This document shows, piece by piece, positions 12,915 to 61,554 of a DNA stretch of 64,000 bases. The stretch is from Blasia pusilla (taxonomy: Eukaryota): contig CM114271.1 in the NCBI GenBank assembly GCA_050084515.1, positions 43,834,001 through 43,898,000 of the forward strand, written 5' to 3'. The position numbers and the translations under genes were made by a program. The first letter of the stretch is position 1. The number at the start of each line of letters is the position of its first letter. A model generated the notes under the pieces. That model searched no databases and had not been told where the DNA came from. It saw only the letters and a list, made by a program, of their open reading frames with translations.

Positions 12915-13008
<94 letters not shown>
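12915..13008. repeat. (AG)n microsatellite
   Basis: Perfect dinucleotide run. Confidence 0.99.
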
Positions 13009-33500: not shown

Positions 33501-36500
33501 CTTGAGTGTAACTTTGTCCCACGGTGTCGGATGAGGTTGAGGATAGGTTCATTGTGTTAGGAAGGTTTTTTCTGATAACTTTCCTGTTGAGGTATTTCAC
33601 AACCGGGTGACTTGTTGACCAGGTCACCCGCCCCTAGTAACCTGTGCATGTAGGTTACCAAGAGGATAGCTTTTTTTAGGGGAAGAGCCTTTTGGCTCTT
33701 CCCAACCCTATATAAGGGAGGAAGATGGCTTTCCCAAGCCATCATTCTCATGTTGGGCCATTGGAGCACCCGTCTTGTATGTGTGTGAGATAGGACTAGG
33801 GTTTTAGCATCTAGGTTCCTTGATAGCGTAGGATGGACAAGGCTCGATATGTCGATGTAGATTGAGGAGTGGAGTTTTAGGCTGGGTGTGCTATTTTTAT
33901 TACTCTTTAATTTTGTTGGTGATCTCTATGTATATGTATGAGTTGATTTTTGTACATGTGTGGATCTACCAGTATGTGGGGAAGATCGGTGTTGTGTGGT
34001 GTAGATGTGACCAGGGATGTATGTTGTGTAGCGATATATATGCGCACGACAACCTTTCTACCTAGTGGGAGTGAGGTGAATGACCATGTGTTATTCAACC
34101 TCATAGATTCAAGCTCTTGTTCAATTTCATCCTTACAGTGAAATGCTTGCTAGCCAAAGAGAGCTTCTTTATAGGTCTTAGGTTCTTTAATATGGACATG
34201 CTTCTCTCATTGACTCAATAATCCATGAGTAAACTTCTCCTTCTCTAGATTCCTAGGGAGTGACTCTTAATGGGCTACATCATATTTCTGCAATAGACTT
34301 GAAACCCTTTTACATCTTCTTGTTCCAACACTTGCTTATGTTGGATTTTTATTGTTGGACTCTATTGAACAATTTTTGGCTTCATCTAAACTTGTTTCAG
34401 TACAACATCAAGAAATGTGTTATTTTTTGGAATCATAATAACATTCGTACTCGTGCTTGGAGAAGAAGGAATTAGTGCAAAAGCTTTACATCCAAAACTT
34501 TTAATGTGATTAAGAACTAGAGGGTCTTTGTGCCAAATCTCATAAGACGTTTTATGACCCTCCTCAACCCTTTTTGGTGCTCACGTTGGAAATATGTTTT
34601 GGAAGTTTTTTGCTCTTACTATCAATTCTCTATGCCTATAAGCCTTTCCAAGACTTCATTGTTCTAGCATTACAAGTATACTACAAGTCGAAGTTTTACT
34701 TTTCCTCTAAGTTACTCCATTATGTTATGGAGTGCGGGGGATTGGAAATTGAAATCGGTGGAAAGATATTCTCCTCCATTATCACATCTTATCAAATTCT
34801 ATTTTTTCTCCCTCACTGGTTGTCTACTAGAGTTCTTATAATAGAAACTTATGAAATACTTTGGATTTCTGCTTTAAAAGATACTTAAAAAAATCATCTA
34901 TGAAAGTTAAGAAATATCTTGCTCTGCTATATGCACATGTGTTTAAGAGTCCACAAACATCATAATGTACTAAGCCAAGACCATCTTCAGCCCTCTTACC
35001 ACCATCTTTGGGGAATTTTTCCCTTACTTGCTTTAATTGGATGGATGCGGTGCAAATAGGAAAGTCATCAATGTCTACTCCCTTGTTTTTGAAATGCTAT
35101 GAGTCTGTCTTGGCTGATGTAGTAGAGTTTCTCATGTCATAATCCATCATTAGTTGTTATAGGGAGAACAATGACGTCCTTGCATGTTGATTTTTTGCTT
35201 GATTGCTAAGGTGTTATGGATTCACCTAATATATACAACTTGTTCTTTGATCTACGAATTGCTATTTTTACTTCAACTTTGTTGTTGAAGGTATAACACG
35301 ATTCTTGATTGTGATGTGTCCTTTTACTTGATCAAATTGATCCACTAAGAATTAATTCCTCTTTAGACTACAAACAAACAACACATTCTGGGATAATAGT
35401 TTATACTCCATTCAACAACGTACTTGATGCACACCGATTGCATTCCTTGAATAAACAAGGTTGTTTCATCTCCCACATACACCATTGATCGCTTATTTAT
35501 ATAACTAGCTTGAAACCTGGTAAATGTGTTGAGGTCATGAGCCATATGTTGAGTAGCTCCTACATCCTCATACCAAGTTATATCTGGAGTACTCAAGAAA
35601 ATTAGGGTTGTTTCATAGACTATATAGCCCTAGACTCTTACTAGAGTCTACCTCTATAGCTTTGGACTTAGCTAGAGAGGCAGAGTTATAGTAAGTAAGG
35701 CAATAAAAACAACATATATCTGTAAGGAATGTGATATGCAACGTAGAGAGATGACAATATCTCTTTAAAGACCTGGGGCCTCTAGATTGTGCCCTTCCTA
35801 GAATAGGATCTTATCGTACACAAAGCAAACGAAATTCATGTCCAAAAGTATTGAGTCACTAACAAGTGACATCTGTCACTGACACATTTGACACATATGT
35901 TGTGAGTCAACAGAATGACGTACCTTGCAAACACATTTGTGTGTCAATTGCAAGCTCAGTGCTAGTCGTCATAGTTACAGTGACAAAACTGTTGTTCATA
36001 CTTGCAATTTTTTTTGTTTTGCGGGAGGGGGAGGGTGTGAAGTCAGAATGGAGTCATACAAAGTGGATAGACATTAATTGGCAGTCGCAACATACTAGCA
36101 AAGTAGTTTCTCTTGGCCAAAATGGACTCAAAACGGAGGCGTGTTAATACCTCAATCCCTTATTGTGAAAAGCCTCTAGAGATGAAGAATGGGCCCATAG
36201 GTTGGTGAAAAGGAAAATAAGGATGATTCATTGGTAAATGAGATACCGACACTAGTCAAAGGAAGATCCACTTGCTATTAGAAGGAAATTAGAAGGAACC
36301 ACTTTAGATAAGGGTATATGAAGCTATTCTTTCCATATTATGCTTATCCTTCAATATATCAAAGAGGATGAGAGGTGTTAAGAAACATTTCTACCTTGGG
36401 TTTCCTTAGAAGACGTCTCAATGAATGGGCAAGTATGGTAATAATTATTGTGGTGTAAGAGCGTGTGTTAGATGGCTCATCCGTGACTAAGAAATATAGA

Positions 36501-40166: not shown

Positions 40167-43100
40167 GATTTTTAGAAGTTTATCTTGGTTGCCTACACTT
40201 GGTTTTGGATCTACTCAAGTAGTAACCTTCATTGTCATGTGGATATCCAGATTATGTGCAATTGCTTGACAGTAAATCTCTTACAATATGTTCTTTAGCA
40301 GTAGGAAACTGTTTTTGCCCAACATCCCAAAGATCACAGGTTATGATGTACTGATATTTAGTGGCAGCAGACTAGTTAATACTACAAGGTCAAAACTAGG
40401 CCTAACCCTCACTTTGTTCTTGAAAATAAATGACAAATGGCTCAGGGGTCTGAGTTGCACAAAGTGTGCTATAGCCTTCCAGATAATGCCTTTTTCATAA
40501 TGTGGTCTCTCCGCCAATCAGTCAGGGAGAGGAAGATAATGTAAACAGCCTAAAAGTATTTTATAGGCATTGACTTTGGTAATGTTCCATCCTCAATTGG
40601 CACTGAGGCAGAAGACAATGAATGTTGAGGACTTGGATCGTCAAGTCTGGCAACTGACAGGATTATCATTTAAACCTCTGTTACTTCATCTGTGCTTGAC
40701 TGCTACCCTCTGTACTGGTTACCTTTCCAGGGATTGCAAACAGAGCACTCTTCCATTTCTCCTCTTGTTGGATGAAGGATGTTTTCATTGATACCCTCCA
40801 TTTCAATGATAAGCATGCATAAATCTAAATCCTGCACCCACAGCATGTGGTTTCTTTCCCTCTCTGAAGGACATGGTGCTCTATCCTCCTAGAATAGAAG
40901 ATTTTCTGTTGACTAGGAATCTTCAAGGTTGTGTTGTAGAAGTGCATTTTGGTGAAATCAGTTGTTGCACTCGAGTCTTCTGGGAAGGTGTAGCCCACGC
41001 CCCCCAATGTCTTGCCACAAGCGACACCAAATGACAACCGAATCAATGTGGCAGTGATATGAACTTGTTGAGGCCCCTGAACTTTTGTATTGCAATTTTA
41101 ATACCATGTTAGAGAGTTCGTTTGGAGTTGACCGTTTGGCCTTCTGGTGCGAATTCACGTTTTTGATGAGTGCACTAGTCAATAGAAGTCTCATCGTCAT
41201 CTTTGTGCGGGGAAGATTGCTAAGGAGAAGCATATCTTGCCTTTGCTTTCTGACCATATACTTTGAGACTGGGTCAGATTGAGGATGGAGGGCACAATCC
41301 ATCCTCAATCTGATCCTCAATATGTGTGCAAAACGTGGATTTGGGAGGGGGTGACCACGTTCTCGATGACAACCCTTTTGATGAAATCAGATGGATAGAG
41401 GAGGGAGGCTTGGATTTTGGAGGAAAGAGTTTGGCGGCTTGCATGTCAAACATGGTGGTTGCAAAGTCCTGACTAAGAATCTCTTTGAAAGATTTCTGAG
41501 ACCATGTTCGCACATTTTGCATATGGGATATCGATACCAGTTTGCTTTCGAGAGCCCACCTGCACTAGATAATGCAGATAAGTGGGTCCAAGTTTGGGAA
41601 ATTACATTACTAGTGTAGATCCCATACCTAATAGTCAAGTTGACATTTCCTTTGACCTTATATAGGGGCATGCATGAGCCGCGCATGGGTTGATAACTTA
41701 TGTACACAAAATCAGATTTCAAAGTAAAGGAGAACTTCCTTAATTACCCACTCTCATATCCCTAAAGTCCAGTTGAAATGCAATAAATGGGGAGAGAAAG
41801 TGTATTGGCAATTAGTGATGCTTTGATTTAGTAATATAGATGCTGTGTGTCAAGCTAAGGGGCTTTGGTGTAGTGAGAACTTATCCTCCCTTCCCCTAAT
41901 AGTATAAACAGATTAAGAGGGGATAGTTTCCTGATTTTCAAATGCCTCCTTGCTTGGCAAATGATATCTTCACTAAAACAAAGTTTTCATAGCATGGGGT
42001 AGCAAGAATGTCCTTAAAAGTAATGCGTCTATCCACGACTGCTATTCATTTGCTTGAAAGAGCTCCGTTGTAGTTTTCATGTTGTCATAAGCCCCCCAAG
42101 GCACTTCCATAGGGTTTCAAGTGTTATCGAACATGAGTTTTTTTTGGAGCGTTTTCAACAATCTCTTTAGAATCCAACTATTGTGGAGAGAAAGTGTAGA
42201 GAAAGTGGAGAGAAAGTGGAGAGAAATGTTTGATCAAACTCTTTCAAGTCATAGCCATCATCCGCCATGATGGGATCAAGATTCATGTTTTGCTTTTGCA
42301 ACTCATTTTGGCTAGTGAGACTCTGACAAGTTCCATCTTGTTGTGACCCCGCTAGAGCTCTAATGTTCTGTGTCGGTGCGCATTTGGTTATAAGAGTTGC
42401 AATAGTATCACAAATTCATGCTACTATTATAGTAATTCAAGTAGCTCTGAGAGTGATCAAATCACAAAGAGGCAGGGTTAAGTTAAATGCATATGTGGGG
42501 ATTGACAAGTGATAGGCCATCATTCTCTAATCATGAAGGTTTTCAGAGGCACTTCATATACCATTGGTATTTCCTAGAAAATCAGTTGCACCTATCGACG
42601 ACATAAAAATGTTATCATTATGAGGAGTTGGAGACACGACTAGAAATTATCAAAATTCTACGATGTATTGGTAGGAAGTAGAGTAATACAACCCTTTGGT
42701 TTTATCCTTGATTTTCGGGAGGAATCGATTGTCTATTGAATAGGATGACAATCAAATGAGCTAATAATCACACAAATGATATGGGTGTGTTGACATCACA
42801 ATGACTCCGAGAGACTCCTATGTTGGCTTAGTTGGAGTTAATATCGAGTAAGTTGTTGGGGGTGGCTATTTCGGCGTGTCAAGATCCATTAAATTCAACC
42901 ATAGATTTGGTGGCAGTGGGAGTTTGACTACTAGAGGTGCTTTGACTAGCCACCATGCTTTGTGAGCGTAGAAAGATTATTGCCTCTTGCACAAAGATAA
43001 TTGGTGAGGAGATGGTAGATATGCCATACTCTATTGCAAATTGACGATTATGACATCATGTAACTCTTCAACTCACGGAACCACTCTAGAGTTGCTCAAA

Positions 43101-46100
43101 GTTAGAATGCTCTCAAGGCCTCTCCTCTTCCTTTATATACTTAGAGATAGGTACAATAAAGATAAATTAACTCTACCTATCCTTATGCCACATGTCCTAC
43201 TCTCATAGTATGAGCGGATCTTCTTTGGAGTCTAATGTCCTAACCTCATCTTCCTCAACCTCATCCTTATCTTCCTTTCACCAACTTATGGCCCTACTCT
43301 CATCTTTATCTCATGTATCTTGTATTTTCTCTATTTGGTTGATTCTTTCCCATTTATGCGCTTCATGTCATAGATTCTAACTTAACTATGACTAACAAAA
43401 GATGGTTACAAACCTCCCACCATTTAAGACACAACGTCCTCGTTGTGAGAACTTTCAAACTCTTGCCAAGTTGGCTGAGGGTTCCCATGTGGCCTCAAAT
43501 AGTGGATATCATTTCCTTTGGACCAAATATTCAACTCGTTGGTGATGAGCTCCTCGAGTGCGTTTCTTTAAGATACATTCCACTTCAAATTCTTTATGAT
43601 CTCCGATTATTTGAGGTAGTGGTGGAGTGACAATATTGTCCTTAAATCTCTCAGAGCATGGAATAAACGGTCGAAGAAGAGAGATATGAAACAAAAGATG
43701 GAATTTCATATGCATTGGTAGGTCTAGCTTATACGCCACAGCGCCCACTTTTTGTAGGATAGTGAAAGACCCAATATAGCGAGGATTAAGCTTACGAACT
43801 CTTAATAATGATAAATTGGTTGTTGCTAACCAAACCTTGTCCCCTTCAAAAACTCGACATCTCGACGATGAGCATCTACATATTTTTGTCGATTTTGGGC
43901 AATAGCCAACTTCTCCTTAGCAAGTTGAACCCCTTTCTGAATCTGGTCCACAAACTCATTAACCGCAGCTACCTTTGTAGGTTTGCTCAGACTTTTCCCT
44001 ATTCGAGTGAGACTAGAAGGAATTGAAGGATGCTCGTCATGCATTAAAAAGAACAGTGCGGTCTTAGTGGAAGAGTTCATGGAGTTATTGTATGAGAACT
44101 CTACTAAGGGTAACAATGAGTCATATCCTTGTTGATCCTCCAATGTTAAGGCGCGTAGCATATTCGCAATGGTACGGTTGGCCCTTTCAATTTGTCCATC
44201 AGTTTGAGGATGATAAGCTGTAGACATGGCTAGTTTAGTTTGGATCAATCCGAATAAAGTCTTCCAAAATAAACTCGTGAAATGAGTTCCCCTATCACTG
44301 ATGAGCACTTTAGGAAGACCATGATGGACAAAGACTGTCTCGATATAGATCCTAGCCAACTCTGGTGTAGTCACAGTCTTCTTGGTTGGACAAAGGTATA
44401 TCATCTTGCTTAGTGTATCCACAAAGACCACAATAGAGTCATATCCCGTGATCGTACATGGTAGCTCACAAACAAGATCCATAGTGAGTTGTTCCCAACG
44501 TTTTTGAGGTATTGGGATCGTCTCCAATAATCCTGCTAGTTTTGTATTACTAGCCTTGATTTGTTGACAAATCCTACAACTTCTTACATATACGTCAACA
44601 TCTTATCTCATTTTGGGCCAATAGTATGCCCATTGTAATCCTTCTAAGGTTTTTTCAGCTCCCATATGAGCCGCAATGATTGTGTCGTGAGCTTCAAACA
44701 ATACTTTAGTGCGTAATTGTGGATCTTGGGGGATCCATACTTTACCTTTATGGAAAACCAATCCTTGAGCCTTGTATACTCCGTTGGCATGAATAGCAAC
44801 TCCAATTTCTTCATCCTCCTTTGTGGCTTTGGATAACTTTTTCCACCAACTAGAATGAATCTCCACTTCATATATGTTATTCATCTGTGGTATACGAGTC
44901 AAGGCGTCTGCCAACTGCTTCTTTCTTCCACATAGACAATTTTCATCATGAATTATTATCGCCATTCTGCCCATCGAATTTGACGTTTGGAGAGCTCCTT
45001 TTGGGACTCTAAGTAGACCAAGGGCTTGTGATCAATCTCCACCACAAACTCCTTATCGCCCAAGTAATGTTTCCAATGCTTGGTTGCCAACACAATAGCA
45101 AGTTCTTCTCGCTCAGTTGTATGGTAGTTTAGCTCCGTTGGCAATAGCTTGCGGGAAAAGAAGGCAATAGGATGCCATCCATCCTCCCATTCTTCTTGTA
45201 GTACTCCTCCAATGCTAGTACTTGAAGCATCTATGGCCAACTTGATGGGTCGATTAGGATTATACCACTTCAAAATAGGGGTTTTGATGAAGGCATCCTT
45301 TAATGATTGAAAAGAAATCTCTTGTGATGTGCCTGAATTCCATTTTTTTCCTTTCCCTAGTAAAGTTGTTAAGGATTGTGCAATTTGAGCAAAACCTTTG
45401 ACAAATCTTTGATAGAATCCTGTTAACCCTAGAAAACTCTTCAATTGAGTTTGATCCTTAGGTGCACTCCATTTTTGGATCCCTTCTACCTTCTCACTGA
45501 TCACTTGAATACCTTTTGCGTTTATTAGACGCCCTAGATAATCAACTTTTGTCTTATTAAACTCACATTTTGAAGTTTTAGCATACAACTCATTATCTCT
45601 TAGGATTTGAAGGACTTCTCGTAGATGATTTATATGCTCCTCTATCGTTTTACTATAGACTAAGATATCATCTAAGAATACAATGACAGACTTGTCTAAA
45701 TATGGACGAAATATATCATTCATTAGGCCCATAAAGGTTGTAGGTGCATTAGTAAGACCAAATGGCATGACTAAGTATTCAAAGTGTCCATACCTAGTAC
45801 AAAAAGCGGTCTTGTGCACATCTTCATCCGCAATTCAAATTTGGTTGTAGCCGCAGCGAAGGTCAAGTTTGGTGAAGTATTTTGCTCCTGGTAGTTGGTC
45901 GAACAAATCATCCACTCTTGGTAATGGATTTTTTTTTGACTGTTTGTTGATTCAGTGCTCGATAGTCGATATAGAGTCGCATGCTTCCATCCTTCTTTTT
46001 CAAAAAAAGGACAGGGGCTCCATATGGCGAGACGGTTGGTTGGATGAAGCCTTTCTGCAACATCTCCTCCACTTGGGCTTTGCATTCTTCTAATTCTCTT

Positions 46101-47832
46101 GGAGCTAAGCGGTAAGGAGCCGGTGGTGTGCTTCCTAGAAGGACCTCAATCTTGTGGTCTACCCTCCGTTTGGGTGGTAACCCTGATGGTAAATCATTTG
46201 GGAATACATCTTTGTATTCCTCCAATACTTCTCTCAACTCGTCTCGTACCTCTGAATATTTTTTCAAACCACAAATATCTATTATTAACTCTAGGAAATA
46301 TACATCTTGATGTTTGATGGTGGTTTTTCCTATTAAATTTAGGGGTAGCGTTCTAGGACATGATCTGACTCTATCTCCGTAAAGCTTCCACTCTCGGGTC
46401 TTCACGATTTTTTCTCTCCAATCTACCTCTGGATTATACTGTTCCATCCAAGGCATTCCGAAGATAACATCATAACGTGCTAACCTAATGATCTTTATCT
46501 CCAACTCTTCCAGATACTTTCCTATCCTCAACTCTTCCCTTCGAGGAAGCTTCTCAATCTTTTCTCTTTGCCCGTTTGGTAATTCTACCTCTTCTTTTTT
46601 ATCCCACTCTAAAGCTAAGCCTAATTTCATAGCTATGGCTCTTGAAAGGAAGTTTTCTATTGCCCCAAGATCAATCAATACTCTAACTTGGGATCCTTCT
46701 ACTTCCCCATCTATAACAATGAGACGTGTTTCTCCTCTCTTCAAACCATTTACCTCCACATGCTTGTGTCGACCCTCGCCCTCCTTTTGTTAGAACCAGT
46801 GTATCCACGAGGCGCGATTATTGGTGGTTGGCGTTTCCTTGAGGTCCGCCTTCTTCGTCATCTTCCTACATGTGTCCTCTTTCAAGATGATTAAGGGGGC
46901 AAAGATATGGCCTATTTCCGAGCCTACGAAGACGATAACTCATGGCTATATGACCGTATCTACCATACTCAAAACATTGGCATGCATCTCTTCGAACTTC
47001 GAATTCTCTCCCTCCTCTAGGAACTCTGACCCCGTCGATTCGAGGAGCAATCCCTTATATGTTGGGGTTCTGATCTCTCTCCATTGGCACCCTTCCATTA
47101 TACCTTCGTGGCGCATAATCATCCCGTGCTCGAAGGTTACCCAACTCCATGGGTGTGGGTCCGTAGTGGTTGTTCATGGAAGCAACCTCCTCTCCTCCTC
47201 CTTCGTACACATTTATCATATGTTGGGCACATGCGATTGCTTCATTGATATCTTTTGGGTTATCTCGAATCACCTCTTGACGCACCTTCCTCTTCAAACC
47301 TCTCTTAAACAGATCAAGAGCTTCTAGCCCACTCATGTCGCGGATTTGTATCTGCAAGTCACGAAACTCTTTGATGTAGTCCTTCATAGTGCCTTTGTGC
47401 TCTAGTCGCCATAATTTCATTCTAGCATTGAGGATTGGATCCACAGCTTAGAAATTTTGCAAAAGCCCTTGCTTCATTCCGCTCCATGTGATTTGTTGAG
47501 TTGTTTCAATCAAGGATCTCTCCCATCCTTGATACCATGTCAATGCTTAATCGATTAACCAAGATCTTACGAACATTCCTACAATATGATCATCAATGTT
47601 GAAAAGGGATAAATGGATTTGCATCCGAGTGATCCAACCCTCTAATACCCCCATGGTTCGACTTCCTTTGTACCTTGCATGCCTTTCTCATTTTCAATAT
47701 CAATGATGCTTGAGCATTCATCTCCATTACTCTTTGTGCTGCTTGGGCCTCCAATGCTCGTGCCCTTAAGGTTTCTTCACTCTCCCCAGAAGTCACGACA
47801 CTCGTGGTTTCCGTCTCCATCCCACCTATCGG

Positions 47833-47932
<100 letters not shown>

Positions 47933-48212
47933 TTCTGACCGAAGCAACTTCTTGCGCTAATTCTTGGACTTGGTTTTGACTTTGATCAAATGCAACTCTC
48001 AACTCTCTCAATTCACAAATCATATCCCTCAAAATTTCTTCCATGATCGCTCCGACTTTCCCCTTACCCTTTACTATCACTCTAATATAAGATCAAGATA
48101 TCCACCGCCAATTTCGCACAATAGAGACTACAAAAGGCAATATTGACGCAATGACTTCATCATAATACTCTTGACCAAACTTCCTCACCATAAACTCTCT
48201 ATATGCTATTTT

Positions 48213-49222
48213 TGTCACGGCCCTCATGACCAAACAAGTGCCAAAGCGGAACATCGGAATATTAGCGGGCTCACGCTAAGATGGTTTGCGCGTTGGAGTG
48301 GTCTCGAAGAAGAGACAAGAGACGGGGCGCAAGAGAGGCTTCGCGTTTCAGATGTTGTGGTCGTGACTGAGAAACCTTGACAAAACGCGGAACAAGACTT
48401 AAAAGGAGTTGAGTCTAGAAAGTGGGTTGCCAAAGGAAGGAATCCGGATTTGGGACGCCACTAGCGTTTGAGAGTTTCCGAATGTATTTATGGCCATAAC
48501 TTTTAGCGCCAAGATTCGTTTGGATTGAACAAGGATGCGTTAGAAGGCTTATGGAAAGCCAATTCAAACGTACTAAAGATCTCTACAAATGCATAAGCAG
48601 TGGCTGCAAACGCATAACAACCCGGGAACGACTGTAAGTAGAGTCGGGTTGAGGGCCACAATGAAGGGCCCGACCCTCCTTTTCCAAAGGTGGAGGGTTA
48701 TTGGAGAACCCCAGAAGTACTAGCAAGGGGGAAGCTCTCCAAGAGTGCTTGGAACTCGAACCCCACTTTGGGCGCCACGGGGCGGCTCAAAGGCATGGAA
48801 CGGATCGAGAGTTTGGGATTGGGTTGGAAAACCTGAACCAAGTCTATGGAGGCGATTTTAGACATCCCTCTTGGATTTCACCCCGCGATTCAATTACTTG
48901 GGTCTCGGTTTGAAACTCACAAGAGGTCCGTTGAAAAATTGGGATCGCTAGGCGCGCAAGTGCTGTTTTAGGTTCCTAGACTAATCAGGAAGTTTGTTCC
49001 AAGTCTTGAAGGACTTGCCATGTTTTGGAAACTAGGAAGTAAGGAAGGTTGAGCTTGATGAGATGCCGAGTTGAGAACTTGGTGGCTTGGAACTCTGGTT
49101 GGTCCAGACCTGACTAACAAGAGTGCGTGTTTGGATGCAGATCGGCGATGAGATCGTGTCCTACTGAACGTACGCTTCCGCAACAATAAAGATTGACGTT
49201 CAAGGAGAGTAGGGGCGCAAAA
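48213..49222 (+). mobile_element. ~1-kb solo LTR (family X) inserted in the 5' UTR of the chromovirus
   Basis: TGTCACGG start, eroded 3' end, TSD ATTTT/ATTTT. High similarity to the other two copies. Confidence 0.85.
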
Positions 49223-49670
49223 ATTTTAGGTTGACAAACCACATGGAATATACATCGAGTGTTAAAAAATACTTGTGGGGGCCTATTCAAATCCATTCCC
49301 CATATCTCCTCTAAAACAATATATAAATATTGCAATCCTACACACGATCATATGTAACAATAGGGAGGATCACAAGATAGCGAGACTCCATCACTTGCGT
49401 CATGAAAACTTCACCAAAGTAATATACGAGGTATCTCGTGAACCAGTGTCTATCTACATATAAGAGTTTGATGGTGAACGGATTAAGAAACGGGAAATTA
49501 TGAGCCACTCTCGCTCCCCCTCCCTCCATTACCTGCAAAAAAGCCCTTCCCCCTTACTCTACTTGCAGCTCAATAGCCACTGCCAGCCTCTAACAACCTA
49601 TCTACTCTAAACAGTATATCATTACTTGGTCATCCTTCCAAGAGGGGTAATCCACTTTCGTTGCAAGAGC

Positions 49671-49688
49671 AACCTTGCTCTGATACCA
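49671..49688 (-). promoter_or_regulatory. Primer binding site for initiator tRNA-Met
   Basis: TGGTATCAGAGCAAGGTT on the minus strand, 1 nt after the 5' LTR. Confidence 0.92.
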
Positions 49689-51796
49689 TTGTAACTCTCC
49701 AACTCACGGAACCACTCTAGAGTTGCTCAAAGGTAGAATGCCCTCAAGGCCTCTCCTCTTCCTTTATATACTTAGAGATAGGTACAATAAAGATAAATTA
49801 ACTCTACCTATCCTTATGCCACATGTCCTATTCTCATAATATGAGAGGATCTTCTTTGGACTCTAATGTCCTAACCTCATCTTCCTCAACCTCATCCTTA
49901 TCTTCCTTTTCACCAACCTATGGCCCCATTCTCATCTTTATCTCATGTATCTTGTATTTTCTCTATTTGATTGATTCTTTCCCATTTATGCGCTTCATGT
50001 CATAGATTCTAACTTAACTATGACTAACAAAGGATGGTTACACATCATTAAAGCTATATGATGTGATGGTAGGGACTATAGTGTTGAATCTCCTTGGGTT
50101 CATCCTTGACGTTTTGGAGGAAACGGTTGGCTATTGGCCACGATGGCAATCAAGTGATAGTTCAATGAGCCAACTACCCATTTGATTTATTGGGCGCAGT
50201 GGTGGTCCATGACGAGATAACGTGACCATATTGGAAACATTCAATAGTAGTATTAGATAATCAAGAGAGTTTTTGGAGGGGAACGCTCATGCCGAGGATA
50301 TCCCTATAGAGATACAAATCATGGTGGGTGTTTCTTCCCATGGTGCCAATACCTCGTCATCATTGTAGGGTACCAATGTTCATTTGTAGGGAAGTGCACA
50401 TGAGCTTATTAGGTAGGGGTGGAGCCATACCTTTGTGCTAGAGTAGAAAAAGTCATGTGATAGTTGCGCGTATCGAGTAGTGATCTTAGAAAAACTCCAA
50501 TTCCATATGATTTGAAAATTTGGAGGTTGCCTTCCTTCATAGAGTCAAACTTGAACTATATCCCTAATTTTGAGAGAAAAATCTTACACATACCAGGTCC
50601 CAAAAATAGTTTCAAGCTCAACATATAGACCATATGATGAAAAAGGAGCTTAATATTTTTCAAGAAAAATTTCTTGGTCTTTTTTAGACAAAATTTTGTA
50701 GGATATCCTTTTTCATGGCATTATGCTATACCTAAAATTTTCAAAGTAAATTACCATAGAGGTCAGCTCAAAAAATTCATAAGAGAATTTAAAATGTGAG
50801 CTACTAGAAATAGAAATAATTTTGTAGTCCAAAGAATCATACAAAATCCTCGCAAATTATTGGATTTATGAGCCAAAAAATATGTTTTAGGGGTGAGGGA
50901 ATCTAAGTGCAACTTTTGTGAATCACTAAGTCTTAGAATCATACGCTAGTGGGGATCTGAGAGACAAGTTGTGATTTTAGTTCAAAAGGAGGATAAACCT
51001 TTGTGATAAGAACCAAGGCAAAAACTTAACTAGCTCTCTAAGGCAAGCGTCTAGTCAAGGACTAGTGGTTAGGGAGTCAACATAAACGATAGTGCCATGA
51101 GACAAGTGACAAAATGCAACTGGCAACAAGACCAATCACAAGATGGAAATGCCAAGAGGTAATATGGATAGTTAGCCATGAGACATATGAAATAAGAGAT
51201 AAGAGGTCAAGAGAAATATTGATAGTTAAGATATGGCAAGGATGCCCATGAGACTCTACAAAGTCACCTTAGTTCTAAACTAGCCAAATGTGGGGAGTTG
51301 GGAGTTGTCAACGATGTTTGGGTCGAGGGCGACAAATAAAGGCGCAAAGTTGATACTTGGAAGGGGGAGGAGGCCTAAAGAATCTCTTTAGTACCTTCTA
51401 ATTTGTTGCTTGTGCAAAGCATAGAACTATTATGAAATTAAAAATGAAGAAAAGAAATCTTCCCTTTCCTCCTCCTTTCACTCGCCCATCCCTTCCTCCT
51501 CTCCCCTCCCCTCTTTCTTCCTCCCCTTAACTTAACTCCCTCCCTTAAAATTTCAATAGAGAAATCCTTACGAGACAGACCTAGAGCTAGGACAAGGCAA
51601 GTATCAACAATAGGAGGGCCACTTCTACAAACCCCTCCTCTATTAATTGTATAGATAGGGGGGGAGGGAGGAAACTCTCCCTCTCTACCCTATGACTCCT
51701 TGGATCAAGAGTTGATCACATTTTTTGTTTGTTTGTGTTTCAAGTTATGAGCTCATAAACCTTTGGATACACCTTGAGAAATTAGCTATTGTTCTA

Positions 51797-54700
51797 TGTC
51801 GTGCGAATCCACATCGTTGACATACCATACTCACATACATACATAACATAGACGAGAGCATACACAAACACAAGTGTACCACAACTGAAATCCGTGAAAG
51901 ATCTACTGTCATAAAACACAAATAGAATCACATACAATCGAGCCAAACCCACTCCACGATGGGAGAATCCAGGTCGAAGCTTGCGGGAACCATCATAGCC
52001 AAGAGCTCTACTCACTACCAAGGCTAACTCCCAACGCAATAGGCTCAACTCAAAGAACTAACTTTTCTTTGAGTGCACTCCATACTATATCTTCCAACCT
52101 AAGAGCGGGCCCTACTGGAAAAGTCACCCTCAACTGAGTAACCCCCAACCTTATGTATGAAACCGCATCTCTACCTAGACACTACGGCCCTACATGAGGT
52201 ATGGCCTCTACTAGCACACTATACTCTACGACATAATCCGTATGGTCATGACAATTGTCGTGCGAATCCACATCGTCATACAATATAGATTGCTGACATA
52301 CCATATTCACATACATACATACATAAAATATACGAGAGCATACACAAACACAAGTGTACCACAACTCGGCCCCCTAAGTGACGGTTAGGTCCCTCTAACT
52401 CCCAGGTAGCCCTATACATCTACTACATGCTATACATCTTCTTGGGTGCACGAATCAGAAGGCCGGGTGCTAGGTTGCCCCATCGTTAGTCTCCTATGTG
52501 TAATCCATATCACGCAAAGATCAAGTCATCTACCTCTCCTAAGTACATCGAGGACAAACCCACCTTCCAATAGGAACAACATCCATACGTGGAGTCAAAC
52601 ACATCATGTGCCAACCCCTAGAACACCGATCACACACCAACATACGGGCTGCGTTACCAGCAAACCCACACAACATGCACCTCAAGCTAGCACGTATCAT
52701 GGCTAAGCTTGGGTCAAGAGTACCATTCACATTTGAAAGATGACATGGTGCACAATTACGCACGTGGTCCTTCCAAACAACTCCATCACGACCCTCGAAC
52801 ATGAGAACTCCAGAAGCTAACATCTCGTGCACTCGTAAAATAGTGCGGCCTGCCGTCACATCCAATATTGTCCATGCAATCTGCTGCAAATAGACATAGT
52901 CCCCCACATGGAACCTACGAATCGATGGTCGATAACCTCCACCCCGAATGGTTGCATACCGCAAAGTATCCCTGTGTTGAGCAATGGCAAGATTCTCAAA
53001 GGCTGTTGGCATAACTCTACGAAAGAGCTCTGCCTGCTGATAACACACTCTCATCCACATCTCTGGGTCATCAAGGTTCACCACCTCACTAGACTTCCGA
53101 CGAATTGCTGCGGGCAAGTCTGGATCTTGGCCGTATAACTGAAAATAAGGTGAAAAGGAAGCCAAGGATGCTTGGCGATCGAACCTATACCCCATGGCAA
53201 ACCATGGCAAATCGAATATCCCAATCTCCAAGATGCGCGTCAGAGGCCATACTTGCGCAATGCCCTCTTCGCCGTCCTGAACCACACGCCAGCCAAACCA
53301 TCCGCCTGGATGATCTCGAGACGTGGTCCGATGATCAATCAACGCCTTGTCACACAAGACCTGAAACTCACCCTAAAACTCTGTACCCTGGTCGGTCAGC
53401 ACTTCAGCTGGTGCACCAAAATGACTAAGCACTCTATCAAGAAACGCATACGCCGTTCCCTCACATGCCTTGTCAGGTAATGCCACCAACTCAATCCACT
53501 TGGATAAGTGCTCCATCATGACCAACACATATCGATGATTTCGTACAGTCAACAGTAACGGTCTCGCAAAGTCCACACTCCAACGATAACCCAACCCCAT
53601 AATAGCCAAGGGGTGTAATTGTGGTGTAGGGGCATTGAATGATGCCCCCATCCGGTCACAAACCATACAACGTGACACCAACTGATGCACCTGAGTATGC
53701 ATGCCACGCCACCAATACTGACCAAGGAATAAGCTATACGTACGCTTTATCCCAAAATGTCCCAACTTCTCATGGGCATTTGCACAATTCGCTCTCTCTG
53801 AGCCAAATACGGCACTACTCGTACTCTACCATCCCCCCACACACGGAGAATATGTGTTCCCTCCAATCGATACCTCTTAGCACGTTGAAGAACACGGTCT
53901 CGCTCCTTGGCACTCACTATGCCTGGCACCCTACTGGTCCGTAGGAACTCCAACACCAACGCATCATCATGAATATCACGCTGATCCGTACCACCATCTC
54001 TAACCTTAGGATCTGAAGGCTAGCCATCTACCCTCTGACTAGAGTAAGATGTCATGTGGTCCTCCATACTAGAGTCCCCTAACCAACATAAAAAGGCGGA
54101 TGCATGCCAACCTCGCACCATCTCCTCATCAACCTCGCCATGCCATCTAGCCCCAGTTGCATCTTCTTGGCTAGTACATGGGTTCCTACTCAACCCATCA
54201 GCATCAAGGTTGGAAACTCTAGGTCTATGTACCACTTGCAAGTCATACTTCGTTAAGATAAGAGCCCACCATGCAAGCTTCCCTGTAAGCTTGTCAGACT
54301 CCATCAACCACTTGAGCAGCTGGTGATCAGTAACAAGGGTAAATTGTCTGCCAAACAAGTAACACCTAAAGTGTGCCATAGCCCACACTACTGCCAAGCA
54401 CTCTCCCTCATATGAACTGTAGCGTGACTCTGCTGCATTATTCGAACGACTTGCATAGGCCACCACAAACTCCATGTGCTCATCATCATGTTGTGTCAAC
54501 ACCGCTCCAAGTCCCAACCTACTCCAATCAATGTGTAACTGAAATGGGCGCCCTCTGATAGGTCTCCTCAAGATAGGCGCCGCCACCAATTGGGCCTTGA
54601 GCTCCACAAAAGCTCTCTCCTAATCATCTCCTCAGTGCCACTCTTGATCTGATTTCAGCAATTAGTTCAAAGGCTTTGCCATAGCACTAAATCCCTTCAC

Positions 54701-57700
54701 ATACCTCTGATAGTAGTTCGCCAATCCCATGAATGCCCGAACTCTGCTCACATCTACCGGACGCAGAATAAGTGCAATAGCCTCCACCTTTGCTTGCTGA
54801 ACTCCCAAACCACCTAGATAGATCACATGACCCAAGTGCTCAACATCCTCATGGAAGAACTTACACTTCCTGGATGCAAACGTAGACCATGAGCTTTCAA
54901 CCGCTCAAACATAATCTGCAAATGTATCTGATGCTCCTCCACCGTGTTACTGAATACCAAGATATCATCAATGTAACACCGAACAAAATCCAACCCTGCT
55001 AGGATCCTGTCCATCACTCTTTGAAACTCGGCAGGTACATTCTTCAACCCAAAGGGTCAGAATTTCCACTGGTACAAACAATCCTTGCCATGAGAGTTGA
55101 CACCCCAAAATGCTGTCTTGGCCTTGTCACTCGCCCGAATCGGCAATTGATGGTATCCTGCCCGAAGATCCAAAGTACTGAAAATCTTTGCCTGTCCCAC
55201 CACATCAAAGATCTCCTCAGGTGTAGGCATGGCATACATATTGGCCTTCGTTTGCCGATTCATAGGAAGGTAATCTCCACACATCCGCCTATCCGTGTAG
55301 TTGCCATGCATATCCTTTTTAGCAGGCATGACAGTGGCTGATGCATACTCTCTATGCAACAACTCCACTAATCCACCCTCCAAAAGGTCCAACGTGCTAC
55401 TCTGAATCAGGTCCCTCTCCATATCACTATATCGGTAGGGACGACGGAAGATTGGCGTATCACTAGCCAAATCAATCCGTATACCGAGTCCAACCAAAGC
55501 ACCCAACTCCTTCATGCTAAAGGCAAAACAACTCCTATAAGCACGTAGGAACTGTGTTAAGCGTCGTTTCTCACCACTCGTAAGCTTGGGCCCAAGTAAT
55601 GGCTCCCAAGTCTCCTCCACTGGCACACTAGAGGGAGAGGATGATGCCATTGGCTGCTATGCAACCCCCTCACAAGATGGTACACCCTTAGCTACACCAT
55701 CATCTGAGCAAATAATTCCTCCACCAGCATGAGCAACCAACTCCACATGCCCAGCCATAACATCTCATTTACTCCAAGGATGCAAAATACTACTTTCCTC
55801 GGCCCCAGCCGATGCCTCTACCATCTCGGTAGCCATCGAACTCATTACAAGGGGTGGAAGACCCACAAACATAGTCCGAAGTCGACGCTGCTCGGCCATA
55901 CCAAGACTCAAAATCCAAGTCAAACAATTCAGGTCCATGGCCTAACCCAACACATGACGTCGTGAAGCCTTAGAAATGGAAGCAACCGCTATCACGCCAG
56001 TAGCAAATCCCATTGCACGCTCTCTCTCATCAGCGTTAGGCTCCACCAACTGTCGCACATGAGAATTCCAAACAAGCCCGGGACCACCTTCCTATAGGCA
56101 TGTGACGAGGGAAAACTCATAAATTTGGGTAGTGCCATCCTAGGCTGGCCCACACAGTTCACCACTGCCATGGGTGACCGATCAATAACCCTCACCACTT
56201 GAGAAAGTCGCCCAGTATCCAAGATACTATCCACTGTAAGGCAAGGATCCTGCTGCAGTGCATCATATGCTCGACGTAGAACCTCCCTAGGCAAAAAGTT
56301 TGTCCACCACAAACGTGGACGATGTGCACGCGAGCCAACTCGCGCTGCATCCAACAACACCGCTGGTCCAATCCAAGACCGCACCTCATGAACACTCGCC
56401 ATCATCCGGGTCCAAGTGTCACCCAACAATGGAACATTCTCTAGAATGTAAGCTGGAGCATGTGCCTGATGAACCCGAAGATGTTGTAACACCCGTAACA
56501 TCTCCCAAAACAATCGAGACCTAGGGTCGTGTAATCCCTCATCACGACTAACACGTGTATGATCCTGACATGGCCATCCAGCAATCACCAAATCCACAAG
56601 ACCAACCCTCTCAAGGTCCTCCGCCCCCAACAATGCAATGTGTGACGGCAAAGCACGTTGGTACCCACAAATAGCTGATGGCGGCAACAACTCAGGATAT
56701 CTCCGCATCCACTGACCAATATGTCGGGATGAGACTCTCTGGGCCGTTTCATCTCATTCCACATACACGTTTCTCCGCATAGGAATATCGGCCTGCAACA
56801 CTGCAGCCAAACCAGTGCTAATCCCACCAAAGAGATGTAACACACAAATGCCCTCCGGCGGATACTGCCATACAATGGGTGTAGTATCCAAAGGGGATAA
56901 CCCAACTGGACCAGAAGTAGGAGTCCGCCATGGGGCCTCCTCTTCCTCGTGAGGTATAACAACCTCACACCAAGCCTCCTGCACCAGGCGATCAGCCTCC
57001 TGCCGTAGTGCACCGCCTGAACTCCAAAGTGGCACATCCAACGATGAGGATGCCATTGCTGCAAAACTAGGGACCTCCTCTACCTCCTCATGCACAGGAG
57101 AATCCATAGCATAAACATTACCCTCCAAAAAGTCTCTTGGCCAAGTGACTACTCCACTAAAACCAGCCACAGATGCTAACACTGTTGGGGAAGAACCTCC
57201 TGGTCGAGCCCCATAAATAAATCTCACAGGAACTTGGCTCATACGTCCATCACCGGACTACCAACCAGATCTATAAGATGCTGTCTCAGTCCAGTAATCC
57301 ATCTGAAAACCCATCGGGTACAATACTGCTCCTCCAACTAGTACATCATACGACTCGGATGATGTGACCACTACAGGTACTCCCAACCGGGAGCTATCAG
57401 TCGCATGATCTGGTCTCAACTGTACAGAGAACTTCTCCCGTGTCATGAATTGAGACCTATCATTGGATCCTCCAAGTGATGTTTGAATCTAGAATGGGCA
57501 AGGCTCAAGCTCTCACCTCCGAATACCCAAACCAATACATGCCGCTTTTCCCAACATCAAAGGTTGGGCACCCGAGTTTAACAAGACTCTATCTGGTCTA
57601 TACACCTGTCCTGTAGGACTCACCAATCGGAATATCCCACTCCGGTTGTCCAACATACATACACCAGGTGTAAGCCTCTCATGATCAATGGCTAGCCGGG

Positions 57701-60700
57701 CTGGTAATGCATCCATCTTTGTCGCTGTTGCCTGCCAAGTAGCATTGGTACTCAATGCTATACCTAACATAGAGGGTTGCTCCACTGCAACACCCTCATC
57801 CACCTCAGCTTGTGTAGCAGTAACACCCCCACGTTCCCACAACGTGGATGCTAGCTGAAATACAAGAGCTAAGTCAACTCCTAAAGCCATCAGCTCCGTG
57901 GCCGAAAACAATGGAGATCCCAACACTGAAGTTGCCATCCGCAATATTGCACTCGATGCTGCATTCGTGTCTACTACACGCAATGTAGATGCCTCAGTCC
58001 CCACTGTCGGCTCAATAGGCTACGTAGGAACCATGGATGGAGTCCTAAGCACCTCAGACAACAAGAATGACTGGGAAAGCCTAGCCTGCCTCCCAGCCTC
58101 ACCCCTCTGTGGGTCCAACTCCAGAGTAGCACCACGTGGCTTTGACGCTCGAGTGGCTCCTCTCGTAACTGCAGCTGATGCCTCAACCTGTGCTGCACTT
58201 GCCATATAAGAGAGATCATACCCTCCATAAGAGGTGGAAGCCCCTACTCCCAAACCTGATCTAAGCTGGATACTAGCCATAGTAGCCAACTTTTGCTCCA
58301 ATTGCTCAATCCTGGCAGCCATAGCTGACTCTGTCGTAGTGGTAGGGGTAGCCACTGTAGGCTCTCCAACCACTGGTCCACCTCTACCATCCCTACCACC
58401 TCTACCACCTCGGCCTCTCGGAGCTACTCTACCACGGCCGCGGCCTGATCTCAACTCTGGATGAAGATCAAAGCAACGCTCTCGAGGATGAGCTCGTCTC
58501 CCGCAATGATCACACTGAGTTGGGCCGGACTGAGGCCCGTCCTCCAAAGTCCATCTCCCATCCTCTTGGGGACAAAACTTCCTAACATGATTACCTCCAT
58601 ATGTCCAACATGACTATCCTTGCTGCGGGGCAGCAAATGAAGGCAATGGTCTCTACGCAAGTGTCCCTCTAGGACCTGACTGAGGTCGTGTGTATCCCCC
58701 ACGACTCCCACTACTACTACAACACTGTGAGATGGGCTGCTGAACACGAGAAGTAGTAGTTGTATCCCTACTTGATGCGGATGTCACCACTCTCTCCTTC
58801 ACCATGTTAAGCTCAATTTTCTCAAATAGAGCAAACACATAAGTCAATGTGGGTGAACCATCACTCATAAGAGTAGCATCACGTACCCTGCGGCGCAACT
58901 CTCTATCCAAGATCCCATACCAAAACTGGATTGCCTGAGCCCCGTCACACCCTGGGTAACTCAAATCAAGCGTCGCATACGAGTGTATGCCTCACGAAGA
59001 CTCTCACCAGTCTTTCGCTCAAATTCGTGAAGACTCCTCAACTTCTCTGTCTTCACTCCCTGATAGTTCTTCTTCAACCTCTTGAAGAACTCTGCAACTG
59101 GGTTGAACGATCGTGGGGCACTAGTACCTCCATTGGTATCCCCACTCCGGCTCGTACTCGTACCACTCAACGTCCGGTTGGTTGGCATAGTAAGAGCACT
59201 ACTACCAATACCACCATGGGTCATAGACACATAGCTTGGAGACCAATATTGTCTCCACGCCTCAATCTTAGCAACATGGTCCTTCCTAAACTCATGGTAA
59301 GCATCCATGGGTGGTCCCTCCAAGTGCTGAAACAACCCCTTCCAAGCCAAGAAGGATGTAAACAACGTGGCATTCCGCAACATCTGCATATCACACCACG
59401 TATTAAACTCCTGCATGAAGTCCTCCAACTCAATGGTGCCCACTACACCGAGTATTGTCGTGGGCCCTTCATGGCCGCATATATCCCGTCCATGTCCCAA
59501 ATCAATGGAGCTGCAACACTCGATAACAACGTAGAAGACTCGGTGTTTGGAACACCCTCGTCCTCCTCTTCATCAACCGTCGGAAGTGGAAAAGGTAGCC
59601 GAGACCTCAATCCAATCCGTGTGAAACCACCACTGTCCGCACCACGTTCCCCAACCAGACCACCAGACAGCTCCGTGATGACCAACGCCGATGCCGCACC
59701 ACCACAAATTACCACCACTAAGTAACCAAGTGACGTCGATGTCGTTGTACTATTCTAGCTCTACTAGCTATGGGTGTAGGCAACCTAACCTGTCAGCACC
59801 ACAAGAAGCCTCCCACGGTCTACTCGTCATCACTCCAGCCTCACTACCGGTAGCACACAGGAGTAATACTACTCTGGAAATCAGCGTTAACCCTAACAAT
59901 GGGCGCGCAAGCAAGAAGCAACGATGGAGGAGATCCAAACACAGAAGTCCAACAACAATCCTCCAATCGCAAATGGAACTCAAGGTAACACAATCCACCA
60001 AACGTGGCGCCCCCTGAATCCACAAAACCCACCATACAATTCTAACGCAATAGCTACTCCGCCGCGGGTCGATGACATGCTAATGGGACTTGCAGCACCT
60101 GAAAATATCACCTGCATGGAGAGGCTACACCGTACTATGCGCTAGAGGTCCATCAACCAAAAAACTTGAGATGCATAAAGCGCCTAACACATCTCCGAAT
60201 AACACCAAATGAGCTACACCAGTGTGTACACTAGCATAGTTAAGAACTCAGCAGTTAAGCTCTAGGAAGAATAGCCCAAATATGGGTGACCAGTTATGCA
60301 ACACTCAAATCAAAAATCCTACAAAAACTGTCTCACGCCCAAGCAAGCAAGCAAGCTTGCTTGCTTGCTCCTTGCTCCTTACTCCGCCTCTCACGCCCAC
60401 TTGCCCCGAGCTACCACCAGTTGCCTCGGAGCCTCAAAACGCCGAGACATGCCCCGTTCGCCATGCTTCGCTATGGAGAGAGGCCCAACCAGGGCGCCCC
60501 CAACGGGATAGGCATCTCCAACAACGAATGAGTCACCAACCAACCAGCCCCTCCGATCCGCTGTCCGCCATAGCCAGACCTTGAGCTAGTCCGCAAAATT
60601 TTGATTAGCAATTACTGCACAAATCCTCAACCAAAATTGAATCTGTTTCAACCAGAGTTCAATTGACCACCATAGCTATCTCTCCACAAAAAATCAGCTA

Positions 60701-61554
60701 CAACCAAGCTCTGTACTCCGAGCTAAAAATCAGACAAACTTGTTGTCCATACACCTCCAGAATCGCATATCCGACAGCGCTTCTGCCCAAATTCATGCAC
60801 GCAGAAATCCGCAACGCTCCACACACTCGAGCAGATAGCTTCACATGAGATCACAATACAAGTAGCAATAGGAACCTCTCACCTGATTTGGATGAACTTC
60901 AACAGAGCTTCCGCACTCCAAGCTCTCCACATCTGAAAACGGTTGAACACGAACCAGAATCTTCAATCCTTGATAACTTCCAACTCCCTTGACAAAATCC
61001 GGCGATCTAAAGCGCATTGGAAAGCTCTCAGCAAGGCGCTTCTTTCCCAACCAACCACATACCAGATTCCCACCTCCAACATAGGCCACAAGCCACGAAC
61101 ATCCACGGCTGAGTACACAATCAGCCCTAACCAGATCCTACTGATCCACTATCGAAGCTACCATCGATCTACTCTAGTTCTTTGAGTGAAATCCGTGAAA
61201 GACCTACTGTCATAAAACACAAATAGAATCACATACAATCGAGCCAGATCCACTCCACGATGGGAGAATCCAGGTCGAAGCTTGCGGGAACCACCATAGC
61301 CAAGAGCTCTACTCACTACCAAGGCTAACTCCCAACGCAACAAGCTCAACTCAAAGAACTAACTGTTCTTTGAGTGCACTCCATACTATATCCTCCAACC
61401 TAAGAGCGGGCCCTATTGGAAAAGTCACCCTCAATTGAGTAATCCCCAACCCTATGTATGAAACCGCATCTCTACCTACACACTACGGCCCTACATAAGG
61501 TATTGCCTCTACTAGCACCCTATACTCTACGACATAATCCGTATGGTCATGACA
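51797..61554 (-). mobile_element. Split-direct-repeat DNMT/PHD gypsy-type retrotransposon (copy C, most complete, same subfamily as A)
   Basis: A1 61187-61554, PPT 52366-52377, B1 52256-52365, A2 51886-52253, B2 51797-51885. gag 58020-59500 with CCHC knuckles and RGG, protease ~57250-57600, MTase 55900-56860, RT with YIDD 54823-55650, RNase H 54020-54607, integrase+PHD 52539-53765. About 16 differences in 368 bp between A1 and A2 by manual count. Confidence 0.95.
55900..56860 (-). pseudogene. C5 cytosine DNA methyltransferase domain of copy C (DNMT3-like motif order)
   Basis: ICVLHLFGGISTGLAAVLQA..YVE; DLVIAGWPCQD; DPRSRLFWEMLRVL; YILENVP; DAARVGSRAHRPRLWWTN; motif IX/X region after frameshifts. 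Confidence 0.92.

Follow-up and report, generated by a model that had tools for sequence, protein, structure and literature searches.

In the textbook view, long terminal repeat (LTR) retrotransposons and retroviruses insert a linear cDNA that ends at the LTR ends, circular forms being regarded as dead ends; a pathway with a circular precursor was once proposed, and then abandoned, for retroviruses. Two green-lineage gypsy elements shown in published figures are among the closest to the one described here. For KnitGypsy-Dnmt3 of Klebsormidium nitens, the legend of Fig. 4c in de Mendoza et al. 2018 (PMC5890265) calls the repeats 'the same as that of a DIRS retrotransposon', which corresponds to the order A-coding-B-A-B. 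Gypsy-7a_cRei of Chlamydomonas, naturally active in laboratory strains, combines a PHD finger with its integrase and is drawn with 'LTR subparts', the final 8 bp of its right LTR being absent from the left (Craig et al. 2022, PMC9940879, Fig. 6A). Herein, we describe an integrase-encoding element with split repeats of this sort, located at positions 51797-61554 of a 64,000-nucleotide stretch of Blasia pusilla DNA (GenBank assembly GCA_050084515.1, contig CM114271.1, positions 43,834,001 to 43,898,000 of the forward strand), which is the window referred to below. The initial annotation of this window, made from the letters alone, knew of no description of the architecture; the KnitGypsy-Dnmt3 legend shows that it had already been depicted.

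The element lies on the minus strand and, read in the sense direction, is ordered A1 (368 bp), primer binding site, internal region, polypurine tract (PPT), B1 (110 bp), a 2-bp spacer (NN), A2 (368 bp) and B2 (89 bp). We think it rather probable that this is an LTR retrotransposon of the Ty3/gypsy type in which the repeat that reverse transcription produces is offset from the one that the integrase recognises, and in which the cDNA ends are joined and the upstream junction is opened. Its sense-strand ends are TGTCATG...CACGACA. Since A starts with TGTCATG and B ends with CACGACA, the two ends of the unit are inverted copies of the TG...CA type, and a palindrome is formed where B1, spacer and A2 meet. 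A1 and A2 are identical at 352 of 368 positions, and B1 and B2 at 86 of 89 aligned positions, in addition to which they differ by indels of 4 bp and 17 bp. The 17-bp deletion is private to the B2 of this copy (51811-51829 against 52270-52286), the missing bases being present in reads and contigs of other copies (the joint that 'goes back 476' in the read table). A BLAST value of only 78% likeness between B1 and B2 had suggested that these repeats are not renewed together, an idea that was dropped once the two indels had been excluded from the comparison.

All three copies found in the window show the A1...B1-NN-A2-B2 arrangement, as the initial annotation had reported, and their exact coordinates are now given in Table 1. 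Copy 1 is 89-97% like the 51797-61554 copy in a self-comparison of the window. It reads TGTCA...GACA and is flanked by a perfect CATC at 2960-2963 and 12857-12860, in agreement with the termini and the 4-bp target duplication that the initial annotation gave for one of the copies. In the third copy, of a related family, the 5' tip of A1 is not homologous, and the parts, although the same, differ much in sequence from those of the other two copies.

Beyond the window, one scan of metagenome contigs with an alignment of the integrase-PHD region yielded 80 loci, of which 10 were treated as duplicates; two further duplicates were recognised later (L017 = L002 and L043 = L031). The layout was read by self-comparison and by comparison with reference A and B modules, the three window copies being counted in. 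A B1-NN-A2 junction (the long form) is present in 31 distinct elements, namely the three window copies and 28 further loci, among which the contigs of L015, L035 and L080 stop inside A2 and the B2 of L021 is broken by an insertion. All elements with this junction begin with TGTCA and end with GACA. In 25 of the 56 distinct elements, B is followed directly by an unrelated, copy-specific flank, giving a short form A-internal-B (L041, L042, L044-L046, L059, L061, L063-L065, L068, L070, L072, L077 and L078; L002, L004, L007, L008, L010, L011, L025 and L030; L020 and L031). Long and short forms number 19 and 15 in the large family whose B begins with ATACATG, six loci plus two window copies and eight in the window's own family, and two and two in the L036 family; the third window copy and L018 each represent the long form only. 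Wherever the 5' side is visible (nine long and six short elements), it reads flank, A1 and primer site, and an A-B-A arrangement at the 5' end occurs in none of these 15. Instead of the two equal LTRs that characterise Ty3/gypsy elements, all nine long forms with both ends visible carry A alone at the 5' end and B-A-B at the 3' end. Conventional B-A...B-A copies, which would speak against the reading of the initial annotation, were not seen among the loci compared.

Such a layout could be an accident if a conventional element with A as its LTR had come to lie beside a B-containing sequence, if a solo repeat had been nested or arranged in tandem, or if the assembly were faulty, and nested insertions are indeed common in this window. 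However, the same arrangement occurs in 31 distinct elements from at least four diverged families and on independent contigs, B2 ends with the conserved integrase terminus, the 4-bp duplications flank the start of A1 and the end of B2 and not A2, and the divergences of A and B within elements correlate. Accident is thus scarcely credible here: the layout is not a matter of chance, recurring as it does in many independent, diverged metagenome loci.

Perfect 4-bp duplications, unrelated to one another in sequence, flank eight of the 14 testable elements, the chance being 1/256 for each (binomial 1.6e-16). Among the long forms, they are perfect in copy 1, L005, L036 and L038, match at three of four bases in L049 and L075, and are absent from L034 and from the 51797-61554 copy (flanks TCTA and ACTC); among the short forms, they are perfect in four of six (L002, L004, L044 and L078) and absent from L031 and L063. 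As the duplications are found in both forms, both owe their insertion, or at least their boundaries, to a staggered cut of 4 bp at the start of A and the end of B, and a cut of this kind at these places is the signature of a DDE integrase. The expectation that copies would share the A...B-A-B layout with 4-bp duplications therefore stands for the long form, within the proportion just given, and had overlooked the short one.

The positions of the two priming sites tell where reverse transcription should begin and end. The 12-16 nt that directly follow A1 are perfectly complementary to a site within A in four families whose primer sequences are unrelated, the stretch amounting to at least 10 nt in 10 of 11 elements. 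The complement lies at about position 193 of A in the window family and L005, at 305 in the third window copy, at about 164 in the ATACATG family and at 159 in L036. A TATA-like motif stands some 30 nt upstream of the self-primer stretch in three of the four families; the window family has it in weak form only, and L005 is without it. Judged by this complementarity, the site after A1 appears to be a self-priming site and not a tRNA site. Such covariation of primer and complement is what self-priming of the Tf1 type predicts, and makes U5 and A end at the same point. On the other side, of 58 loci in which the scan reached at least 250 bp past the match (duplicates L017 and L043 included), 51 have a run of at least five G after the integrase; this run abuts B1, except that CGA separates the two in the window's family. 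With a PPT before B1 and a primer site after A1, ordinary reverse transcription must yield a B-NN-A LTR. A primer site after the 5' repeat and a PPT before the 3' repeat are what one finds in Ty3/gypsy elements, yet here both delimit B-A, and the integrated ends lie at the NN junction inside the reverse-transcription LTR, not at its ends. The initial annotation had located both sites correctly, with the amendment that the primer site is probably self-priming, and its deduction that normal reverse transcription gives BA-internal-BA agrees with both positions.

If the true cDNA ends are B start and A end, then they meet in the integrated copy at the A2|B2 joint. A joint made anew at each insertion should show untidy cDNA ends, while an inherited one should vary no more than the sequence around it. 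The ATACATG family has an A that ends in ...TTCA, a primer site that begins with ATTC and a B that begins with ATACATG. Among 15 aligned copies of this family, the joint is exact in six, carries an additional A in one, AT in four, ATTC in one, A together with G in one and T in one, and is marked by a two-sided deletion in one (L049); a sixteenth copy (L073) has an additional ATT. The G of the A-plus-G joint is the last base of the PPT. The added bases follow the order of the primer site, which is what one would expect if a few ribonucleotides of the primer were still attached to the minus strand at completion of the plus strand. In the window family, three copies have the joint A|GTTGTGG and two have A|ATTGTGG, and the joint of two others includes the CGA that separates B1 from the G-run. 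Homopolymer runs hold most of the other length variation in the 744-column alignment. Variation by zero to four bases of the primer site or one base of the PPT looks like that of joined cDNA ends or circle junctions, and thus supports, as far as aligned copies can tell, a joining step. Joint variants differ between sister copies and do not cluster, with 10 changes on a tree of 31 copies against 7-10 in shuffles.

A related proposal, that the spacer NN is likewise remade at each insertion (it varies in seven and five of 15 copies at its two positions), was rejected: both positions are cytosines in a CAG/CTG context. Transition frequencies in the same alignment average 0.19 in that context, against 0.175 at CpG and 0.078 in other contexts; at the two spacer positions they are 0.47 and 0.27.

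The repeats themselves appear to be renewed in pairs. Identities of A1/A2 and of B1/B2 within an element correlate (nine elements; Spearman 0.78, p 0.013), and within elements both pairs carry shared copy-specific variants. The B2 of the same element is the closest of 16 to its B1 in seven of 15 elements (median rank 3), and the A2 of the same element ranks 1, 1, 2 and 4 of 16 against its A1. No fixed difference sets B1 apart from B2 in the alignment; apparent A1-specific and A2-specific columns were considered and discarded, being explained by sub-lineages, since A1 and A2 of one element agree. Taken together, these comparisons fit LTR-type copying, in which A and B would be renewed together from one template. 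As side observations resting on small numbers, the last 13 nt of the internal B1 show three changes in 15 copies (about nine in 18 with three copies added by eye) and the corresponding 13 nt of the terminal B2 about 16 among 14 copies, chiefly at CpG; A1 starts look more altered than A2 starts in a 15-locus alignment.

These observations bear on a replication cycle of the DIRS/PAT/Ngaro kind, in which a near full-length RNA (A1 to B2) would be copied colinearly, the B1-A2 junction would serve merely as a template for restoring the ends, and a DDE integrase would stand in place of the tyrosine recombinase. The repeat layout is identical to that of PAT-like and Ngaro elements as far as the accounts in PMC7192593 and PMC5890265 describe it, and such a cycle would explain naturally why only one permutation exists. 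Against this, it predicts separately inherited joint and repeat copies, whereas the joint varies by primer-derived bases and B1/B2 and A1/A2 share copy-specific variants with no paralogue-specific differences. Moreover, the PPT and the self-primer site stand exactly where an LTR-type mechanism needs them, 4-bp duplications are present, and none of the 20 open reading frames (ORFs) scanned matched a recombinase. Overall, we regard a DIRS-like cycle as highly improbable.

Transcription was followed in three raw-read RNA runs of the same species label, matched to the element at 90% likeness. Some 4100-4550 reads per run span the entire element, and the first mate is almost always on the plus strand, which, given the usual stranded libraries, means RNA of the minus (sense) strand. 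The depth is biased towards the 3' side, rising from about 6-35 over the 5' third to 130-186 over the integrase-PHD region, and it goes on through B1 and the junction into A2. RNA 3' ends gather at 52093 (A2 position 161; 26-29 molecules per run), beyond which the depth drops to about one-third and fades towards the end of A2. Two joints in the RNA belong to internally shortened relatives: one at 53011-54016 skips 1004 bases with nine other letters between (16-46 reads per run), and one at 52929-59408 skips 6478 bases (5-6 reads per run). Such joints indicate that deleted, probably non-autonomous, copies are transcribed.

The sequence of events that we propose is as follows. Starting in A1, an RNA would extend across the internal region, the PPT, B1 and the B-NN-A junction and reach into A2. 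The minus strand would be primed by the 5' end of this same RNA at the site just after A1, in the manner of Tf1, and the G-rich PPT would prime the plus strand at the start of B, giving a linear cDNA of the form [B-NN-A]-internal-[B-NN-A]. One end of this cDNA, that of A, which sometimes keeps a few bases of the primer, would then be joined to the other, the start of B, giving an A|B joint. In the upstream LTR, the rve integrase would cleave each strand of the palindromic GACA-NN-TGTC junction 3' of CA. The product, A-internal-B-NN-A|B, would have CA ends that are processed and bear a 2-nt overhang, and it would be inserted with a 4-bp target duplication.

Several points weigh against this scenario. 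We infer the joining step, its agent (host end joining or reverse transcriptase), the closed circle, the integrase cut and the order of steps from integrated copies, and all copies examined are decayed. A closed circle with two LTRs has two identical B-NN-A junctions and predicts that A-B-A-internal-B should be equally common, while the count is 0 of 15. Four of the 14 testable elements are without a target duplication, the 51797-61554 copy among them. The pile-up of RNA 3' ends at position 161 of A2 lies 33 nt upstream of the predicted start at 194, so that these RNAs would be without a terminal repeat and only read-through RNAs could be templates; moreover, reads fit A1 and A2 alike, which leaves the transcript start and the R region as predictions. 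The tree drawn for the 31 copies is star-like, with 18 of 28 inner branches below 80, which leaves the joint-clustering comparison little power, and the spacer NN, inherited under the model, is likewise without phylogenetic signal on it.

The absence of the other permutation calls for some one-sided step, such as an upstream cut before or during end joining, or template switching. Accordingly, we also considered that the out-of-register LTR may arise with no free closed circle: the integrase may cut the upstream-LTR junction on linear cDNA and hold the new ends while the original ends join before or after strand transfer, or the reverse transcriptase may jump from the end of A to the start of B. 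Routes of this type can be one-sided and could explain the opening of the upstream junction alone, and primer-derived bases at the joint fit either the ligation of untidy ends or template switching. Still, the mirror-image reaction at the downstream LTR is just as conceivable on paper, and the two-sided joint deletion of L049 looks more like end joining than like template switching. We consider these routes, the main alternative, unlikely, and favour the joining of cDNA ends followed by opening of the upstream junction as the simplest reading of the observations. The initial annotation had proposed exactly a circle with two LTRs opened at the upstream B/A junction; its joined ends are supported by the variable, primer-derived joint and by shared copy-specific variants, whereas the closed circle is hypothetical and the missing permutation speaks against it.

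The short A-internal-B copies may come either from cutting at both junctions, from a one-LTR intermediate or from later deletion between B1 and B2. Long and short forms are interspersed on the tree, with median terminal branches of 0.052 and 0.053 (p 0.95), and with branches so equal, age says nothing on how the short form arises. Neither the branch lengths nor the duplications of the short form (perfect in four of six) discriminate between these origins.

Table 1. Positions of the element, its parts and related copies in the window
Feature	Positions	Strand	Remarks
A1, sole 5'-end repeat	61187-61554	-	sense start TGTCATG (integrase end); holds self-primer motif at 61350-61361
Primer binding site	61175-61186	-	sense CTCAAAGAACTA; immediately 3' of A1; complementary to 12 nt within A (A position 194-205)
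Internal region	52378-61174	-	decayed coding, 8.8 kb
Gag-like ORF fragment	58961-59569	-	weak Retrotrans_gag match, E 0.006, under Pfam cut-off
C-5 cytosine DNA methyltransferase domain within pol	55992-56753	-	PF00145, E 2.3e-8
Reverse transcriptase fragment	55057-55656	-	weak RVT_1 match; homologous to reverse transcriptase of copy 1 and third copy
RNase H domain	54020-54619	-	RT_RNaseH, E 8e-34
Integrase zinc-binding domain and start of rve core	53373-53825	-	Integrase_H2C2 1e-12, rve 2e-9
Remaining integrase and C-terminal PHD finger	52539-53372	-	PF00628, E 6.6e-10
Polypurine-type tract	52366-52377	-	sense TTAGGGGGCCGA; immediately 5' of B1; G-rich
B1, internal copy of short repeat	52256-52365	-	110 bp; ends CACGACA
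2-bp spacer of palindromic B-NN-A junction	52254-52255	-	GACA-AT-TGTC; proposed internal integrase site
A2	51886-52253	-	368 bp
B2, terminal copy	51797-51885	-	89 bp; join to A2 at 51885|51886 = proposed cDNA end-to-end joint
Copy 1, same family and layout	2964-12856	-	B2 2964-3069; A2 3070-3263 plus ~4297-4474; B1 ~4477-4587; A1 12490-12856
Third copy, related family, same layout	24191-34051	+	~70% DNA identity; A1 ~24191-24638; primer site 24639-24652; PPT 33283-33294; B1 33295-33432; spacer GT; A2 33435-33914; B2 33915-34051

Fourteen of the 22 ORFs of at least 100 aa in the 51797-61554 copy lie on the minus strand, and Pfam matches on this strand follow the order reverse transcriptase, RNase H and rve integrase, as in Ty3/gypsy pol. 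Longer relatives found with the integrase-PHD ORF unite RVT_1, RNase H, rve and the PHD finger in a single protein. Twenty of the 22 ORFs, from both strands and comprising all but those at 53093-53428 and 53154-53480 on the plus strand, were scanned for the tyrosine-recombinase domain Phage_integrase, and none matched it at E values of up to 0.01 or 0.1. PF00589 was also found in none of 120 listed relatives of the integrase-PHD ORF according to precomputed domains, which did show rve. For the ORFs scanned, these matches support the initial annotation in seeing a DDE-integrase gypsy element with no tyrosine-recombinase ORF.

The best named relatives of the integrase-PHD ORF come from Marchantia polymorpha (70-72%), followed by Calypogeia, Klebsormidium (45-48%; K. 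nitens) and volvocine algae (about 40%). The methyltransferase ORF has many relatives in the proteomes of Marchantia polymorpha, Calypogeia fissa and Sphagnum, and among its homologues are proteins uniting PF00145 with reverse transcriptase, RNase H and rve. By the relatives of these two ORFs, the host would probably be a liverwort or another bryophyte. A cytosine-5 methyltransferase domain lies within pol in all three copies, at 8018-8665 (minus strand) in copy 1 and at 28767-29177 and 30180-30341 (plus strand) in the third copy. Our literature searches found methyltransferase-bearing elements of such type described for Klebsormidium only.

Other repeats of the window surround or interrupt these copies. 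A 1.0-kb unit with TGTC...GACA ends is present three times (70-86% alike): as a foreign 1033-bp insert at 3264-4296 (plus strand) in the A2 of copy 1, as a foreign insert at about 29178-30179 (minus strand) in the methyltransferase of the third copy, and at 48212-49225 (plus strand) in a fourth, more distant gypsy-like element. Two of the three units are flanked by a 4-bp duplication, to which one base is added on the GACA side. These units, absent from all fetched metagenome loci, may be solo A-B units of another family. The fourth element, at 43059-50042, has 352-bp direct repeats (43059-43410 and 49690-50042; 96% alike) and similarity to reverse transcriptase and integrase on the minus strand at 44279-45951 (27-44% aa); a further fragment lies at 50150-50365. 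A (GA)n microsatellite occupies 12915-12960, about 60 bp past the end of copy 1.

Many independent insertions record integrase-type ends and duplications inside the reverse-transcription LTR, together with a variable joint of the true cDNA ends. Confirmation of the proposed scenario would make end joining a required step of the life cycle, which could tie these elements to host DNA repair; it would explain the origin of the many truncated A-internal-B copies and connect the way in which tyrosine-recombinase retroelements arrange their repeats with the usual reverse transcription of LTR elements. It is tempting to extend the scenario to a whole clade of green-lineage DDE-integrase gypsy elements (bryophytes, Klebsormidium and perhaps Chlamydomonas), all of which would have to join their cDNA ends in an intermediate of the two-LTR-circle type before integrating through a palindrome inside the LTR; we hold this generalisation to be a serious possibility that falls just short of probable. 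Were it true, each long integrated copy would carry a fossil circle junction, one-LTR forms or doubly cut molecules would give rise to the abundant dead A-internal-B copies, and a natural, obligatory circle-precursor pathway would exist. It would also follow that, no matter which enzyme performs the insertion, reverse transcription of the LTR type combined with an attachment site inside the LTR is the source of the split-repeat layout of PAT and Ngaro. On the practical side, software that looks for LTRs by expecting two equal ones is likely to mis-annotate this group, including the methyltransferase carriers, which appear numerous in liverwort and moss proteomes.

With self-priming Ty3/gypsy elements of the Tf1/sushi type, our element appears to share a primer site right after the 5' repeat that is complementary to the predicted first bases of the transcript, a likeness read from the sequences of four families. 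Tf1-type elements have two equal LTRs, unlike the element described here.

Apart from the 2018 and 2022 legends, the literature searched, which lay outside subscription journals, Repbase and supplements, contained no integrase or gypsy element with split direct repeats and no mechanism for one; the name KnitGypsy-Dnmt3 was found in no other paper of it. By layout and domains, the Blasia element is like KnitGypsy-Dnmt3, in which a gypsy-type pol with a cytosine methyltransferase domain inside is bounded by A-coding-B-A-B repeats (PMC5890265). Unlike the present analysis, the text of that paper gives no termini, duplications, primer sites or mechanism for the element, although its supplements may hold more. 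Gypsy-7a_cRei may be a small version of the same offset, as far as its description goes (PMC9940879), except that its B would be 8 bp only, against 110 and 89 bp here. In the split direct repeats A1-internal-B1-A2-B2, with an internal B1-A2 junction equal to the joined ends, our element is also like the PAT-like and Ngaro members of the DIRS order, as outlined in PMC7192593. Those elements use a tyrosine recombinase and leave no staggered-cut duplication, whereas here we find an rve integrase, TG...CA ends and 4-bp duplications. Overall, we conclude that the element is a bryophyte member of a kind already in print, and that the proposed mechanism is supported by new evidence but does not account for the constant choice of the upstream junction.

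The closest enzymatic parallel comes from foamy-virus and HIV-1 integrases, which cleave the palindromic LTR-LTR junction of two-LTR circles according to the accounts in PMC1180852 and PMC1905944. As in those cases, a DDE integrase would cut an internal palindrome made of two ends and so produce processed ends, the cut being a proposal for our element. The retroviral palindrome is identical with the circle joint, and the pathway there is accessory at best. In our element, each LTR has the palindrome within it, the joint of the circle type is found elsewhere (A|B) and persists after integration, and the pathway would be obligatory.

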